Shown here: piece by piece, positions 20,738-26,446 of the stretch
Numbering within the stretch: the stretch's first letter is position 1
How the letters are laid out: every line of letters begins with the position of its first letter
Source of the DNA: an uncultured Nitrososphaerota archaeon
GTDB taxonomy: Archaea; Thermoproteota; Nitrososphaeria; Nitrososphaerales; Gagatemarchaeaceae
Reading direction: 5' to 3'
DNA length: 64,000 nucleotides
Assembly (NCBI GenBank): GCA_963838925.1
Contig: CAWISW010000001.1
Coordinates: forward strand, 256,001 to 320,000
Position numbers and translations under genes: made by a program
Notes under the pieces: generated by a model
What the model was told of the DNA's origin: nothing
What the model saw: the letters and a program-made list of their open reading frames with translations, nothing else
The model's database searches: none

Positions 20738-21507
20738 CGGCGACCCTCGCCTCGGTCCTGCTCCTCACCGCGCTCCTAGTGGCGGACGTGACGCTGATGA
20801 CCGCCCAGGACGACCTCGCGTCGAGCGCCCAGGCCACGCACGTCGAGACCAGAGAGCTCCTCCTCGAGGAGTCGCTCGTCGGGAGCACCTCTCTCCAAGT
20901 TCTCGCGCAGGTCCAGGACTATCTCGCGTCTACGCCCGCGGACTGCGACAGAATGCCCCAGTACGTCTACTCCATCTCCGCCTCGAGCTCGACGTCCGGA
21001 GAGGACGAGGGCATCGCCTACTCGGTCAGCGTCTCGGCGACGGGTGCGCCGACCTCCCCGGTGCAGGGACCTCCGGGGGGAGACTCTGCTATCTTGTCCC
21101 CCTTCTCCGGGTTCGTCCCTGGAGAGCTCAACCTCGAGGCGGCGTCCAGCGTCAAAGAGGTCGGGGGAGGAGGGTCGGTGTCCCTGGAGAGGCACGACGC
21201 TCAGGCATTGAACATCCCCATCTCCCCCGGGACGGCGGGCTCCCTCTGCGCGTCCGCCCTCTCCTCGCTGGAGGCGGCGCTCTCCCTGTCGTCCTGCAAC
21301 GTCACGCTGGCCCAGACGGCGTTCGCTGCGGCGGTCCCCCTGCTAGAGCAGGAGGCCTCCGCGCTCGGGTTCTTCTTCACGGCCGGCTGGGCGCCGGGAG
21401 GTCCGTCCTGCTCGGCGACCTACTGGGTCGTGCTCGTGGAGCTTGGAGTCGTGGGAGTGTCAGGAGACTTCGACTGGACTGTCCGTGGCTCTGGGTCGAC
21501 AGCATAG
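20719..21507 (+). CDS. Large minor pilin/adhesin-like protein (probable CTG start)
   Basis: ARKA|VAATLASVLLLTALLV resembles a class III signal peptide; Ser/Gly-rich extracellular domain. Confidence 0.6.
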   Translation: MARKAVAATLASVLLLTALLVADVTLMTAQDDLASSAQATHVETRELLLEESLVGSTSLQVLAQVQDYLASTPADCDRMPQYVYSISASSSTSGEDEGIAYSVSVSATGAPTSPVQGPPGGDSAILSPFSGFVPGELNLEAASSVKEVGGGGSVSLERHDAQALNIPISPGTAGSLCASALSSLEAALSLSSCNVTLAQTAFAAAVPLLEQEASALGFFFTAGWAPGGPSCSATYWVVLVELGVVGVSGDFDWTVRGSGSTA

Positions 21508-22456
21508 GCCTCAGCTCGTCGTAGATCGCGTCCCACCTCGGCCTGAAGAGCTCGCAGAACTGCTCCCTGACGGTGTACTCCGCCGCGTTGACGCACATTG
21601 CGACGTCCCTCTGCGTGAAGAGCTTCTTCCTCGACTCGCTCTCGGAGACCGCCACCTCGGCCGCGTAGAAGCTCGTCGCGGCGAGGGCGCAGGGGCTGTG
21701 CCCGCCCCTCACCGAGGAGTCCAGCATTGCGAGCGCCCTCCTCGCCAGATGGAGCAGCTTGTACTGGTAGCCGGGGGGCGCGCCGAGCCTCGGCAGGACC
21801 TCGGAGAGGCGGGCAGCCACCCTGCCGAGGTGCTCCTCCGCCCTCATCGCGCTCGCCTTCACCGGGGAGTCGAACCCCATCTTGATGAGCGTGGACGGCC
21901 TGACGTTGTGCCCCAGCGCCCTGTGGGACGCGACGACCTCCCTCACGCCGACGCTCGAGACCCCGCATATCCTGCAGGCGCTTGTTATCGAGAAGGCGGA
22001 GATCGCGGCTATCGTGTACCCCGTCCTCTGCTTCCTGATCGCGAGGAGGCCTTTGGCCACCGCTATCGACTGCCCAATGACACCCGGGGGAAGGGACAGC
22101 TTCTCGCAGATCCGCTCTATCAGCTTCGCGCACGGGTATACGCCCGCCTCGTCCACCTGCGAGTAGTCAGAGATTGTCTTCAGGTACCTGAACGTGGAAG
22201 AGGAGCCCGCGAGCCCCCTGGGGGGCGATTCGTCGCGGTCGTACTCCATCGGCCCGAGGAAGCTCCCGAGCGAGTGGTTGGTGTAGTCCACCGCGTGCGC
22301 CCTTCTCGCGGTCGCTCCGACGGCCGAGTCTGCCACGACCTCCTTCGGCCGGACGCTCCCGCAGGAGGAGCAGACGATTTCCTCGTCGATGTCAACCATC
22401 CTTCCAGAGCAGTTCGCGCACCTCGCATCGTCAGCATCACAAACAGAAGTAAGCAT
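21377..22456 (-). CDS. tfb: Divergent transcription initiation factor IIB (TFB) paralog
   Basis: CANC...CSSCG zinc ribbon; cyclin repeats IERICEKLSLP, GHSPCALAATSFY, TQRDVA...AEYTVR. Confidence 0.85.
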   Translation of the reverse strand: MLTSVCDADDARCANCSGRMVDIDEEIVCSSCGSVRPKEVVADSAVGATARRAHAVDYTNHSLGSFLGPMEYDRDESPPRGLAGSSSTFRYLKTISDYSQVDEAGVYPCAKLIERICEKLSLPPGVIGQSIAVAKGLLAIRKQRTGYTIAAISAFSITSACRICGVSSVGVREVVASHRALGHNVRPSTLIKMGFDSPVKASAMRAEEHLGRVAARLSEVLPRLGAPPGYQYKLLHLARRALAMLDSSVRGGHSPCALAATSFYAAEVAVSESESRKKLFTQRDVAMCVNAAEYTVREQFCELFRPRWDAIYDELRPMLSTQSHGQSSRSLLTLPRLQAPRARPSRSPSRTDLPAPSRP

Positions 22457-22627
22457 GAGGAGGGAGCTAGGCGCCTCTGGTAATCTCCTGGACCAGCTAC
22501 CCGGGAGCCGTCCCGCGCGGCTCCATCGCCCTCCGGCACGTCGGCACGTTGCGGAGGGGGGTGGGATGCGTGAAAGTGCCGGAACCACGAACCGTTTTAA
22601 ACGACGACACGAGGGACAAAATCCTAG

Positions 22628-23569
22628 TTGCTAGAGAAGGTGAAGGACGTCCACATCAGACCCTCGAGGGACGTCGTCTCCCTCGTCGACCAGATGCACG
22701 CCGCAGGGGGCTTCATGGGGAGGCACCTCGCCGAGGTGGCGAAGATCTACACCGAGATGCTCGACGACCGAAAGTGCACGAAGTTCCTCTCGTTCCCCGC
22801 CGCCATCGTCGCCACTGGGACGAGGGGGGTGATCGTAGACATGATCAAGGAGGGCATGGTCGACGTGATAATCACCGCCTCTGGAACGCTTGACCACGAC
22901 CTTGCCCGCAGCTGGGGCGACTACTACCACGGCAGCTTCGACCTCGACGACCTGAAGGTGAAGAGGGAGGGGTTCCACAGGCTCGGGAACGTCCTCGTCC
23001 CCCTCGAGACGTACGGCCCCGCCCTCGAGAAGCGACTCCAGCCGTGGCTCGAGGGCAGGTACCAGGCGGGGGACAGGAGCATGACTACCGAGAAGCTCTG
23101 TCACGAGCTGGGGGAGCTTGGGGACGAGCACTCGATCCTCTACTGGGCGAGGAAGAAGAACGTCCCGATCTTCGTCCCGGGGCCGATGGACGGCGCCGTG
23201 GGCTCTCAGATCTGGCTCTTCGCGAACAGGCGGAGCGACTTCAGAGTGGACGTGATAGGGGACGAGAAGAGGCTGGCCGACATCACCTTCGACGCGAAGA
23301 AGAGCGGCGCGCTGGTGATCGGGGGAGGGATAAGCAAGCACCATTTGTTGTGGTGGAACCAGTTTAAGGGCGGGCTAGATTATGCCTGCTATGTCACCAC
23401 AGCTGCAGAGTGGGATGGCAGCCTCAGCGGCGCCCAAGTCAAGGAGGCGATATCTTGGGGGAAAGTGAAGAGTCGAGCGAGGACTGTTACCCTTTATTCT
23501 GAGGCAACGACATCTCTCGCGTTCATTGTGACCTACGCCATGACCAAACGGAAGAACAAACCTTCGTAG
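22628..23569 (+). CDS. dys: Deoxyhypusine synthase (chimeric: 3' end supplied by the inserted element)
   Basis: HRLGNVLVP, FVPGPMDGAVG, IGGGISKHH, EWDGSLSGAQVKEAISWGK with the catalytic Lys. Confidence 0.95.
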   Translation: MLEKVKDVHIRPSRDVVSLVDQMHAAGGFMGRHLAEVAKIYTEMLDDRKCTKFLSFPAAIVATGTRGVIVDMIKEGMVDVIITASGTLDHDLARSWGDYYHGSFDLDDLKVKREGFHRLGNVLVPLETYGPALEKRLQPWLEGRYQAGDRSMTTEKLCHELGELGDEHSILYWARKKNVPIFVPGPMDGAVGSQIWLFANRRSDFRVDVIGDEKRLADITFDAKKSGALVIGGGISKHHLLWWNQFKGGLDYACYVTTAAEWDGSLSGAQVKEAISWGKVKSRARTVTLYSEATTSLAFIVTYAMTKRKNKPS

Positions 23570-24096
23570 TGCGTCATCGGCGCGGTTCAGGAAATGTTGG
23601 TTGTTAAGTACCAAACGTAGTATAATCACGGTCCTCCAAGACGGCAGCTCGAATAAAGAAGCGACCCGGTCCTGCAAAGGGTTACATGCCGAAACATCTA
23701 CCAACAAAACCACTACTGCTTCCAAATCTTGAAAACCCACTTTTGGTAGAAAGAGCGATAGGGTTACACGAGGGCGAGGGAGGTTCCTACTGCATCAAAG
23801 GGACGTTACGAATCGCCATCACCATGTGCTCAAGGGACGCATTGGAAAGGATACAGCCAGTCATCGGGACCAAGGTTACCCGGTGCAACAGGGCGAAATG
23901 TGAACGAACAGAAGAGAATCCCGAGGGATTTGACTACCGATTATCAAGGGACGGCAAGTTCGCCATACTCATCATGGAGACATTCATCAATCGCGGTCTT
24001 TCAAAGGAGAAATCCGACCAATATCATAACGTCATGAGGAAATGCGAAGAACTGGCGCAGACTTCAGAGAGAAATCCTAAGTCGATATCTTGAGAA
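23423..24096 (+). mobile_element. 674-bp homing-endonuclease cassette inserted in dys, carrying a replacement 3' end
   Basis: Bounded by the direct repeat CTCAGCGGCGCCCA at 23423 and 24097; visibly more AT-rich than the flanks; contains the dys 3' end and a LAGLIDADG ORF. Confidence 0.85.
23686..24093 (+). CDS. Single-motif LAGLIDADG homing-endonuclease-like protein
   Basis: ERAIGLHEGEGGSY resembles the LAGLIDADG helix, followed by RIAITM..RDALERIQ..IG.KV...YRL; 135 aa; atypical codon usage. Confidence 0.72.
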   Translation: MPKHLPTKPLLLPNLENPLLVERAIGLHEGEGGSYCIKGTLRIAITMCSRDALERIQPVIGTKVTRCNRAKCERTEENPEGFDYRLSRDGKFAILIMETFINRGLSKEKSDQYHNVMRKCEELAQTSERNPKSIS

Positions 24097-24240
24097 CTCA
24101 GCGGCGCCCAGGTCAAGGAGGCCATCTCCTGGGGCAAGGTGAGGCCGAAGGCGAGGAAGTCGACCCTCATCGCCGACGCCACAACGGTCCTCCCGCTCGT
24201 CGCAAGCTACGCGATGACGAACAGGATGAAGCGCCCCTAA
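24097..24240 (+). pseudogene. Displaced original 3' end of deoxyhypusine synthase
   Basis: Translates to LSGAQVKEAISWGKVRPKARKSTLIADATTVLPLVASYAMTNRMKRP*; host-like GC3 codons; no start codon. Confidence 0.9.
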
Positions 24241-24286
24241 ACTTATAACCGGTTCAGGGAAACCCCCGCAGTCAGTTCTCGATAAA

Positions 24287-26446
24287 ATGGTGATAGACTA
24301 CAGTCTCCTAGCCGTGGGCGGGGCGCTCGTAGCGCTCGTCTATGCTGTCGTGCTCATCTTCAACGTAAGGTCGCATAACGCAGGCACCCCCAAGATGCAG
24401 GAGATAGCTGGCGCCGTGAGGGAGGGCGCCAACGCCTTCCTCTCGAGGGAGTACAGGGTCATCGCGCCCGTCGCGGTCCTCGTCGCCGCCGCGATCTACA
24501 TCTTCATCGACATCCCGCTCGGCACGGGCGGTGCCATAACAGTCGGGTTCGTCTTGGGCGCCGGCCTCTCGGCCTTCGCTGGCTACGTGGGGATGGCGAT
24601 AACGGTCCGGACGAGCTCGAGGACGGCAGAGGCCGCGAAGAGCGGGCTCGGCGACGCCCTCACCGTCTCCTTCAGGGGCGGGAGCGTGATGGGCATGGCG
24701 GTCGTCGGCTTCGGGCTGCTCGGACTGTCGCTCTTCTACATCGCGTACCAGGGGACGATCACCGCGAACCCCGCCACGATGGCGGGGCTGGGCTTCGGCG
24801 CGTCGTTGATCGCCATGTTCATGAGAGTCTCGGGCGGCATCTACACCAAGGCTGCCGACGTCGGCGCTGACCTCGTAGGGAAGGTCGAGGCGAACATCCC
24901 AGAGGACGACCCCCGCAACCCTGCCGTCATCGCCGACAACGTTGGCGACAACGTAGGCGACTGCGCAGGTATGGGCGCTGACGTGTACGAGTCGTTCGTC
25001 GTCACGGCCATCGCGGCGGTGATACTCGGCGGGCTCGTCCAGCTCGCAGTCAAGGGAAGCAGCCTCCCGTCCCAGCTCCTTTCGGTCGTCTCTGCGAACC
25101 AGCTGATACTCTACCCTCTCACCTTGGGGGTCGCGGGGATTGTGGGCTCAATAGTGGGCGGCTTCTACATACGACGCTCGATAAAGTCGAAGCCCATGGC
25201 AGCGCTGAACGTGTCGCTGATGATCGCCGCTGTGATCACGGTTGCGATCGACTACTTCATCGGTCAGTCGCTCTTCGGGGGCAACCCGATTGCGTATTGG
25301 CTCTTCGGCAGCGCCGTCGTCGGGGTCGTGGTGGTCATCGTGATAGAGAGGGTGGCAGACTACTTCACGTCGTACCTCTTCCCGCCCGTCCGGCACATCG
25401 CCGAGGCGAGCCAGACCGGGGCCGCGACCAACTTCTTGGCGGGCTTCTCCACGGGGCTGCAGAGCACGGCCCCCTCGGCCGTGGTGCTCGTCGTCGCCCT
25501 CTTGATCTCATACTACCTTGGCTACTACGGCTCGGGCTCTGACACCCTGATGGGGGTATACAGCACCGCCATCGCGACGATGTCCATGCTCTCCCTCACC
25601 GGAGCCATCATGTCGATCGACTCGTTCGGGCCCATCACCGACAACGCCAACGGGATAGCCGAGATGGCGGGGCTCGAGGGCAACGTGCGCGTCGTGACCG
25701 ACGAGCTCGACGCCATCGGTAACACCACCAAGGCGACCACCAAGGCCTTCGCGGTCATGTCGGCCGCGCTCGCCGCGGTCTCCATCTTCGAGGCGTTCCA
25801 GAGCGAGGTCAACAGGCAGATCGCGCTCCACGACCTCTTCTCAAAGTACGGGCTCCCGCCCGGCGGGACCCTCTCCTTCACACTTAGCGACCCTCACGTG
25901 ATAATCGGGCTCTTCATCGGAAGCCTGCTCCCGTTCTACTTCTCCAGCTTCCTCATCCAGGCCGTGGGCCGCGCCGCGATAAAGATGGTCAACGAGGTTA
26001 GGCGCCAGTTCAAGGAGATTCCCGGCATCATGGAAGGGACAGGGAAGCCCGACTATGCAAAGTGCGTCGACATCAGCACGGCGGCTGCCATCAAGGAGCT
26101 TGCTGCGCCCGCGGTGCTCGCAGTCCTCACCCCGCTGGTCGTCGGCTTCGTCCTCGGTCCGCTCGCCCTCGGAGGGGTCCTGATAGGAAGCGTCATCGCG
26201 GGCGTCTACTTGGCGTTCACCATGACCAACAGCGGCGCCGCCTGGGACAACGCGAAGAAGTACATCGAGACCGGTGCCTTCGGAGGCAAGGGGACGCCCA
26301 CACACGCTGCGGCGGTCATGGGCGACACGGTCGGAGACCCGTTCAAGGACACGGCAGGGCCGGCGATCAACTCGCTGATCAAGGTCCTGAACACGATCTC
26401 TATCGTCTTCGTCTCGGCCATAGTGCTCTACGCCCTCTTCGTCTGA
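24287..26446 (+). CDS. hppA: Membrane H+-translocating pyrophosphatase, K+-independent type
   Basis: GGIYTKAADVGADLVGKVE, EDDPRNP, DNVGDNVGD, GNTTKA (Lys variant), GDTVGDPFKDTAGP. Confidence 0.96.
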   Translation: MVIDYSLLAVGGALVALVYAVVLIFNVRSHNAGTPKMQEIAGAVREGANAFLSREYRVIAPVAVLVAAAIYIFIDIPLGTGGAITVGFVLGAGLSAFAGYVGMAITVRTSSRTAEAAKSGLGDALTVSFRGGSVMGMAVVGFGLLGLSLFYIAYQGTITANPATMAGLGFGASLIAMFMRVSGGIYTKAADVGADLVGKVEANIPEDDPRNPAVIADNVGDNVGDCAGMGADVYESFVVTAIAAVILGGLVQLAVKGSSLPSQLLSVVSANQLILYPLTLGVAGIVGSIVGGFYIRRSIKSKPMAALNVSLMIAAVITVAIDYFIGQSLFGGNPIAYWLFGSAVVGVVVVIVIERVADYFTSYLFPPVRHIAEASQTGAATNFLAGFSTGLQSTAPSAVVLVVALLISYYLGYYGSGSDTLMGVYSTAIATMSMLSLTGAIMSIDSFGPITDNANGIAEMAGLEGNVRVVTDELDAIGNTTKATTKAFAVMSAALAAVSIFEAFQSEVNRQIALHDLFSKYGLPPGGTLSFTLSDPHVIIGLFIGSLLPFYFSSFLIQAVGRAAIKMVNEVRRQFKEIPGIMEGTGKPDYAKCVDISTAAAIKELAAPAVLAVLTPLVVGFVLGPLALGGVLIGSVIAGVYLAFTMTNSGAAWDNAKKYIETGAFGGKGTPTHAAAVMGDTVGDPFKDTAGPAINSLIKVLNTISIVFVSAIVLYALFV

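Follow-up and report, generated by a model that had tools for sequence, protein, structure and literature searches.

Why does one archaeal gene end twice? In the 64-kb window analysed here (the whole stretch of DNA under study, G000:C1:256001–320000, from a genome of 1.84 Mb in 3 contigs that is 87% complete), the deoxyhypusine synthase (DHS) gene dys of an uncultured soil archaeon reads through to a stop codon, an open reading frame (ORF) of 135 codons follows, and behind it lies a second copy of the 3' end of dys. A first-pass annotation had proposed that an intron-less homing-endonuclease cassette replaced the end of the gene. Our analysis favours this explanation, with a probability of roughly 0.85: a free-standing, single-motif LAGLIDADG homing cassette would have entered chromosomal dys upstream of the lysine codon of its SWGK motif. 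The mobile unit, as delimited from the sequence, would be the 674 bp from 23423 to 24096, which comprise a dys 3' end of their own with its stop codon, a spacer and the endonuclease gene.

Native and carried ends of dys

The dys coding sequence (22628–23569, plus strand, like all parts of the locus named in this section) encodes a chimeric but complete DHS of 313 aa. Its product matches the Pfam family DS (PF01916, E 1.8e-97) over profile positions 2–287 of 288, a complete domain with the SWGK lysine, and its best match in the PDB is an archaeal DHS (8put, E 8e-80). By alignment offset (query 49–302 versus 96–352 of the 1rlz chain), the lysine, K279, corresponds to residue 329 of the human enzyme; we take Lys329 of human DHS to be the catalytic residue, and K279 of SWGK presumably is catalytic as well. 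The insertion point lies between the codons for ...DGS and LSGAQ..., 13 codons 5' of the SWGK lysine. From there, the insert proper (23423–24096, 674 bp) consists of the element-borne dys tail, which runs from LSGAQ... to the stop and includes the lysine codon at 23462–23464 (23423–23569), a spacer of 116 nt between the dys stop and the endonuclease ORF (23570–23685), and the ORF itself (23686–24093), of which the window's genome contains a single copy. The insert is bounded by two copies of the 14-mer CTCAGCGGCGCCCA, with which both dys tails open and which the window contains at 23423 and 24097 and nowhere else, at a distance of 674 bp. The stranded native 3' end (24097–24240), 47 codons and a stop codon without a start, is recognised by Pfam DS (E 3.8e-12, profile 250–287) and shares 62% amino acid identity with the in-gene tail (tblastn, E 4e-13). 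The endonuclease ORF is in a frame different from that of dys (23686 versus 22628) and in the same frame as the stranded tail, from which it is separated by TGA and one codon. The annotation's outline of the locus, namely the dys stop at 23569, the start-less second C-terminus at 24097–24240 and the repeat of the tail starts at a distance of 674 bp, is thereby borne out; these features go far beyond what chance would produce.

Base composition changes along the locus. The GC content drops from about 0.65 to 0.45–0.55 between ~23340 and ~24097, and the GC content at third codon positions (GC3) is 0.92 in 22628–23339 and 0.64 in 23339–23569, compared to 0.53 for the 135-aa ORF and 0.94 for the stranded tail. 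At ~23330–23340, dys drops from ~90% to ~75% nucleotide identity with its seven closest relatives, and past 23456 to ~55%. The host-derived part of dys (22628–23340, GC3 0.92) is highly similar to the closest relatives, with 80–95% nucleotide identity in most 60-nt segments; in 23341–23422, identity to close relatives is 70–80%. Upstream of the repeat, the diagnostic states WWN, CYV and AAEW are common to the window and a metagenome contig described below (L046), and absent from the seven close relatives. The foreign-type dys sequence 5' of the insertion point (23341–23422) reads as a co-conversion tract. The first diagnostic foreign site is at 23357–23358, with no informative sites from there back to ~23300, and the left boundary can be placed only between ~23300 and 23357. 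The annotation had described host-like codons in the stranded copy and A/T-ending codons in the in-gene copy, which the GC3 values corroborate. It had also placed the start of the foreign codons at ~23340 and ascribed them to co-conversion; a foreign tract upstream of the repeat is indeed present, with its start confined to the interval of ~23300–23357.

A total of 41 genomes was searched: the window's genome, 22 others from its genus, 2 from elsewhere in the family, and 16 from other families within the order. DHS matches were found in 40 of them, the sole miss being a 59%-complete genome. In the 29 relatives' loci compared, the best dys match covers the full length without interruption, and an isolated extra match to the dys tail occurs in just three of the 41 genomes, those being the window's genome, G022 (contig C16) and G040. 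Occupied alleles are those of the window, L046, L047 and G022:C16, whereas dys is uninterrupted in the other relatives' loci compared. A gene for a H+-translocating pyrophosphatase (PPase) adjoins dys in 24 of the 29 relatives' loci (L003–L031) as well as in L046 and L047, and the spacing between the stranded tail and the PPase gene is about the same as that between dys and the PPase gene in close relatives.

Compared to the seven closest relatives over its first 38 codons, the stranded tail shows 82–91% nucleotide identity and 31–35 identical residues out of 38, whereas the in-gene tail shows 61–69% and 22–25, respectively. In a tree of 26 tails, four stranded copies and the seven relatives form a clade of 11 rows (support 96/93); a separate, long-branched clade unites the in-gene tails of L046 and the window (100/99). 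The N-terminal 700 nt of the window's dys fall inside a host clade of nine rows (98/98). The in-gene tail has states that are common outside the host clade (VK..., TLY.EAT), rather than states derived within it. The identities and the tail trees together indicate that the stranded tail is the original gene end, and that the tail in use came from elsewhere. The annotation had predicted empty alleles in related genomes and separate positions of the two tails in trees; both were found, and relatives devoid of the insert carry the stranded type of tail, not the in-gene type.

Both the carried tail and the endonuclease are, by their substitution patterns, under purifying selection. In the comparison of the window with L046, dN/dS amounts to 0.05 (carried tail), 0.10 (endonuclease codons 1–108) and 0.18 (dys body). 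The stranded tail of the window, as compared to the relatives, gives values of 0.13–0.15, as observed between functional tails; this lack of relaxation suggests that the insertion is recent.

Nearly every genome searched contains a second, distant DHS-like gene, whose product shares 27–33% identity with that of dys over almost its full length. In the window's genome this paralogue is located outside the window, at G000:C1:76449–77372, and one such locus is present in most of the 40 relatives. The conserved paralogue might buffer damage to dys.

The reading frame between the two ends

The ORF at 23686–24093 was suspected to be LAGLIDADG-like from its letters, a suspicion that the structural model supports. 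A whole-library HMMER search returned 11 proteins at E<=1e-3, one of them a spurious repeat protein. For modelling, the ORF was aligned with 11 homologues (alignment A1); P0003, P0007, P0012 and P0015 were left out, the last of which, a 1235-aa repeat protein, had been dropped as a spurious match of the representative search. A search of the PDB with the family profile gave 13 matches, all of them to LAGLIDADG enzymes or maturases, albeit weak ones (E 0.05–1.5). In this search, the segment AIGLHEGEG aligns to the LAGLIDADG helix, namely to YIVGLFEGDG of the bI3 maturase and YLVGLYEGDG of I-AniI.

The AlphaFold2 model calculated from the alignment has a predicted local distance difference test score (pLDDT) of 89.5 and a predicted template modelling score (pTM) of 0.79. 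It comprises helix 18–31, strands 32–37 and 40–47, helix 50–60, strand 84–89, and helices 90–102 and 107–129, that is, an alpha-beta-beta-alpha-beta-beta-alpha core in which the second beta hairpin has one clear strand only; residues 1–10 are disordered. The best 18 of 48,161 PDB representatives in a Foldseek search all have the LAGLIDADG fold (probability 0.97–1.00, template modelling (TM) score 0.44–0.55); the matches include I-CreI and variants thereof, I-TnaI, I-MsoI, I-CvuI, the bI3 maturase, I-OnuI-type enzymes and the archaeal I-Vdi141I. For the homologue P0011 (39% identity), the nearest neighbours in the ESM Atlas are LAGLIDADG clusters (score 0.94, TM 0.65–0.72). On the basis of the model, the ORF codes for a single-motif LAGLIDADG-fold protein of the size of I-CreI. 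The motif, GLHEGEG, places Glu31 at the end of helix 18–31 in the position of the catalytic residue, and Glu31 is a candidate for this role. By analogy with enzymes of this type, the protein would act as a homodimer.

More distant homologues of the endonuclease, with 33–38% identity, occur in G189, G214, G292, G157, G040 and G013. At E<=1e-3, no duplicated ends of flanking genes were found in the loci of these homologues; carrying a gene end is a property of the dys element alone. In a sister genus, distant homologues form tandem pairs or fused two-domain proteins of 260–272 aa (L037 1099–1881 on G214:C18; L033 1028–1411 and 1519–1854 on G189:C70; P0007, 272 aa), located directly 3' of a DFP/flavoprotein (CoaBC-like) gene (Pfam DFP, E 1e-53). 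This arrangement looks like a fusion of genes, from homodimer to monomer, within a small family. A match in a contig of a metagenome-assembled genome (MAG) of the Clostridia (L045 590–802; 32% identity over residues 29–94, within a bacterial ORF of 1015 aa) has an E value of 2e-5 that was calculated relative to the candidates only, and is probably spurious or a very distant domain.

Further copies, decay and competing explanations

The same cassette is present at the same site in at least three other assemblies. L046, a metagenome contig of 71.6 kb, contains in this order a TFB-like gene, a chimeric dys, the endonuclease gene, a stranded tail and the PPase gene; as far as their sequences reach, L047 (1.2 kb) and L044 (identical to G022:C16, of an 'uncultured archaeon' MAG) are arranged alike. 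The protein records P0001 and P0002 represent further copies, and in P0002 the endonuclease is fused in frame to a host-type tail. The endonuclease gene of the window is intact. Those of L046 and L044 have a common 1-nt deletion near codon 110, with an additional insertion in L044, and that of L047 has a 1-nt deletion near codon 33. The stranded tails have decayed as well: LSGAQ is mutated in L046 and L044, a 2-nt deletion is found in L047, and the tail of L044 is cut off by an insertion sequence (IS; DDE_Tnp_IS240, E 4e-19). In L044 (~700–2750), the region between the stranded tail and the PPase gene contains an IS240-type DDE transposase gene and an ORF with a SWIM finger.

Genome G022 harbours two dys alleles, which reflects either two strains or a duplication. 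Through the foreign tract and ~40 nt into the repeat, the second allele, on contig C11, shares about 99% identity with L046; from there on its tail is of the host type, with no endonuclease gene. Its sequence would fit loss of the element with a foreign-type scar, either by recombination between the two tails or by conversion of the flank only. An IS605 OrfB-like gene lies 3' of this scarred dys (L048 1299–1796; HTH_OrfB_IS605, E 5.6e-10), and several frameshifts in genes of G022 look like assembly errors. Intact, decaying, deleted-with-scar and empty alleles are thus all present in public data. In ten protein clusters at 90% identity (P0016–P0025), N-terminal parts of the host clade, 82–87% identical to the window's, are joined to element-type tails. 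Their upstream mosaics differ (for example WWSQ...CYI...AVEW in P0025), which is suggestive of repeated events with different conversion lengths.

Short-read contigs from four soil-metagenome runs of one study, from which the window itself may stem, are identical to it over 23268–23418, across the composition boundary, over 23334–23634, and over 23634–24114, the last of these segments taking in the entire ORF plus 18 nt of the stranded tail; parts of the stretch are uncovered in some runs. Other contigs from the same samples part from the window exactly at 24097 or 24100, matching it only from there on and having host-type ...EYDGS codons before this position. By their sequence, these are empty alleles of relatives.

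We propose the following course of events. The enzyme, probably as a homodimer, would cut an empty dys allele near the ...DGS/LSGAQ... codons. The broken left end would pair with the dys body of the donor, giving rise to the co-conversion tract, while the broken right end, that is, the recipient's own tail, would pair with the host-like stranded tail of the donor; repair synthesis would then copy the carried tail, the spacer and the endonuclease gene. The recipient would obtain a chimeric but complete dys, with the last 48 codons and a variable co-converted 5' stretch derived from the element, and its own tail would survive as an untranslated remnant further downstream. With the reading frame restored by the carried tail, no splicing would be needed, and because the right end would invade a host-like stranded tail, every stranded tail would be of the host type. 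Compared to empty sites, the in-gene site differs by TAC to TGG and GAC to GAT, 7–11 nt upstream of the junction; these changes may or may not matter. The chances are about equal for and against active 'exon-replacing' LAGLIDADG elements circulating by recombination, without an intron or intein, among soil archaea, which are Thaumarchaeota-like by the source names of related DHS records. If they do, such elements would enter an essential chromosomal gene at its active-site codons and would be the first of this kind outside organelles and phages; the carried gene end would be a general third solution, beside RNA and protein splicing, in cellular genomes, and the element would naturally mark homologous gene flow from one archaeal species to another.

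Several observations weigh against a homing cassette. None of the Pfam models LAGLIDADG_1, LAGLIDADG_2 and LAGLIDADG_3 matched the ORF at E<=1 or the 11 aligned homologues at E<=10; NCBIfam gave no LAGLIDADG match for the ORF, and PHROGs only a weak match labelled HNH (E 0.059). The Foldseek E values of the LAGLIDADG rows are no better than 1.9e-3 to 1.6e-2, and site-specific endonuclease activity is predicted from the fold. Taken together, a fold match without a profile match points to a divergent clade that is recognised by its fold, not by its profile. No lineage whose tail is naturally of the element type turned up as a donor, and the most similar tails are all attached to N-parts of the host clade. 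A tree of the PPase flank places the two rows with an endonuclease next to each other in 38% of the bootstrap trees; trees of flanking genes cannot separate one acquisition from several, and a single origin may account for the data. The junction at 24097 is bridged in the short-read contigs by 18 nt only. A homodimeric endonuclease would favour a pseudo-palindromic target, and a search for such a target (9+4+9) around the junction in the seven relatives gave at best 5–7 matches out of 9, with no consistent centre at the junction and no formal null. Finally, the start codon of a conserved N-terminal extension is missing from the window's ORF, which may be truncated.

The last point bears on the alternative that survives best, according to which the cassette arrived by homing but the window copy is now an inactive relic that has lost its proper start and an N-terminal basic arm, so that only the chimeric dys matters to the cell. 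The 60 nt 5' of the ATG (23626–23685) are open in the frame of the ORF and encode a basic peptide, KKRPGPAKGY. The last ~36 nt of the spacer (23650–23685) encode the conserved KKRPGPxKGY, which is part of the ORF in other copies, and an alignment of this spacer end from four copies shows mostly third-position changes. The endonucleases of P0001, P0002 and L046 start further upstream than that of the window. Other copies keep KKRPGPPKGY and an upstream start, whereas in the window a TAA (23623–23625) is followed by no ATG, GTG or TTG until the ATG at 23686, the first and only start. This open 5' stretch suggests a lost start, a non-canonical start, or a conserved RNA or DNA signal. Moreover, three of the four other DNA copies seen are frameshifted, which would make decay the usual fate of the element. 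On the other hand, the 135-aa ORF is uninterrupted, keeps Glu31 and folds confidently; its dN/dS versus L046 is low (0.10), the undecayed stranded tail speaks for a recent insertion, and the disorder of residues 1–10 in the model implies that the fold is independent of the extension. On balance a relic seems unlikely; as to whether the window copy is active today, the odds are roughly even.

Much less probable, and in our view improbable altogether, is an origin with neither transfer nor homing, in which the dys 3' end was duplicated in tandem on the spot, the copies then diverged there, and an unrelated ORF was inserted. It would account for the failure to find a donor lineage and for the attachment of the most similar tails to host-clade N-parts. 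However, foreign-type sequence with low GC3 extends over 23357–23422, upstream of the duplicated segment, and a simple local duplication cannot explain this. The states VK... and TLY.EAT of the in-gene tail, common outside the host clade and not derived within it, the homing-endonuclease fold of the ORF, and its presence or absence at one exact site among close relatives likewise argue against duplication.

Slighter still is the probability that the 674 nt are a spliced intron, either of the bulge-helix-bulge (BHB) type or of group I, with the in-gene tail as a mere intron-borne extension of the ORF. Deletion of 23423–24096 does yield an in-frame host-type dys, the G022:C11 allele resembles such a join, and LAGLIDADG genes are found in group I introns of archaea, Thaumarchaeota among them, the examples taken from PMC6125680 being in rRNA genes. 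However, no Rfam intron family matched at E<=1 in 22400–24500, where the scan gave one irrelevant weak match (E 0.62), although a divergent intron could still escape such a search. BHB-like pairings between the junction regions are at chance level, with 4 perfect scores versus 3 with a control region. The in-gene tail lacks nothing up to its stop codon and, with the dN/dS of 0.05 given above, is under strong purifying selection; in G022:C11, the crossover is located ~40 nt within the repeat, as recombination predicts. The decisive argument against splicing is that the would-be 3' exon is decaying in the other copies (LSGAQ in L046 and L044, the 2-nt deletion in L047, the IS in L044) while the tail in use is conserved.

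A chimera that joins reads of two organisms, conceivable for a metagenome-type assembly from samples with related empty-allele strains, is extremely improbable in view of the same order of parts in the separate assemblies L046, L047 and L044 and in P0001 and P0002, and of exact-match short-read contigs that cross the boundary at 23340 and cover the ORF into the stranded tail; a chimeric assembly was named in the annotation as a possible refutation, which these independent assemblies answer.

Known systems and neighbouring genes

The homing cassette that we favour has its closest counterparts in fungal mitochondria. Mobile ORFs (mORFs) associated with a foreign C-terminus are described, in PMC3630166, for atp6 of Allomyces macrogynus, atp6, atp9, cox2 and nad3 of Glomus sp., atp9 of Rhizopus, and cox2 of Mortierella, and C-terminal duplications of cob and atp6 with LAGLIDADG or GIY-YIG ORFs are reported for Endoconidiophora in PMC6279837. 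As in those elements, a gene body, a foreign C-terminus, an endonuclease ORF and a displaced native C-terminus follow each other in this order. The similarity extends to the identities: in the comparison of Glomus with a close relative given in PMC3630166, native tails are 91–98% and inserted tails 64–81% identical, while the corresponding values here are 82–91% and 61–69%; some of the Glomus ORFs are in phase with the gene. In both cases the native tail falls among the host group and the inserted tail outside it, and the fungal endonuclease, too, is often of the LAGLIDADG type. As in Glomus atp6, the ORF shares its phase with the native tail, in P0002 and, but for one stop codon, in the window. 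Mobility of the Allomyces element was shown biochemically, as stated in PMC3630166; that of the dys element is inferred. Unlike the fungal mORFs, the dys element resides in an archaeal chromosome and not in an organelle, its target is an enzyme that modifies a translation factor, beside the catalytic lysine, and its endonuclease is from a small clade missed by the Pfam LAGLIDADG models.

As a rule, endonuclease genes that are free-standing occur at intergenic sites only, according to two reviews (PMC13619312, PMC3943268). The enzymes I-CreI, I-MsoI, I-CvuI, I-TnaI and I-Vdi141I are encoded inside group I or archaeal rRNA introns, whereas the ORF described here is free-standing in a protein-coding gene; its sequence identity to these enzymes is 13–21%, and it also deviates from them in the single clear strand of its second hairpin. 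Archaeal inteins and introns with LAGLIDADG genes resemble the dys element in that they occupy conserved active-site codons of essential genes and go through a cycle of invasion, decay and loss; the difference is that the host of the dys element is protected by a replacement gene end, and not by protein or RNA splicing. In T4-like phages, the free-standing endonuclease genes of the seg and mob groups adjoin their targets and spread by double-strand-break repair with co-conversion. The position of the endonuclease gene beside its target, and repair of a break with co-conversion, would be common to this intronless homing and to the dys element, but the phage genes are intergenic, replace the flank of the recipient without leaving a displaced duplicate gene end, and spread in co-infection.

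Searches of the literature outside subscription journals yielded no archaeal or chromosomal example of a carried C-terminus and nothing that joins deoxyhypusine synthase with a homing endonuclease, and the papers found on free-standing LAGLIDADG genes were all organellar. Among the matches listed for intronless homing in archaea and for LAGLIDADG genes in Thaumarchaeota, none concerned such an element by title or abstract. Our statement that there is no archaeal example derives from these negative searches only. New here are the domain of life, the target gene and the divergent endonuclease clade, the architecture being already known from fungal mitochondria. The archaeal case, in the region of the catalytic lysine of dys, extends the strategy of carrying a C-terminus to cellular genomes. 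It also provides a small (135 aa) and very divergent LAGLIDADG scaffold with a predictable target, and a marker of recombination between related lineages of soil archaea. In addition, such elements are a source of mis-annotation, since they generate chimeric genes, orphan fragments of gene ends, and fusions of ORF and tail such as P0002.

Downstream, outside the element, the window continues with the PPase gene (24287–26446, plus strand; Pfam H_PPase, E 2.2e-248). A scan of the locus for promoters and terminators employed sigma-70 models, which are uninformative for an archaeon. The upstream neighbour of dys (21377–22588, minus strand) codes for a protein of 403 aa with weak matches to the TFIIB repeat and the zinc ribbon (E 0.01 and 0.09, respectively). 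This gene also adjoins dys in L046, and its product looks like a divergent TFB-like factor.

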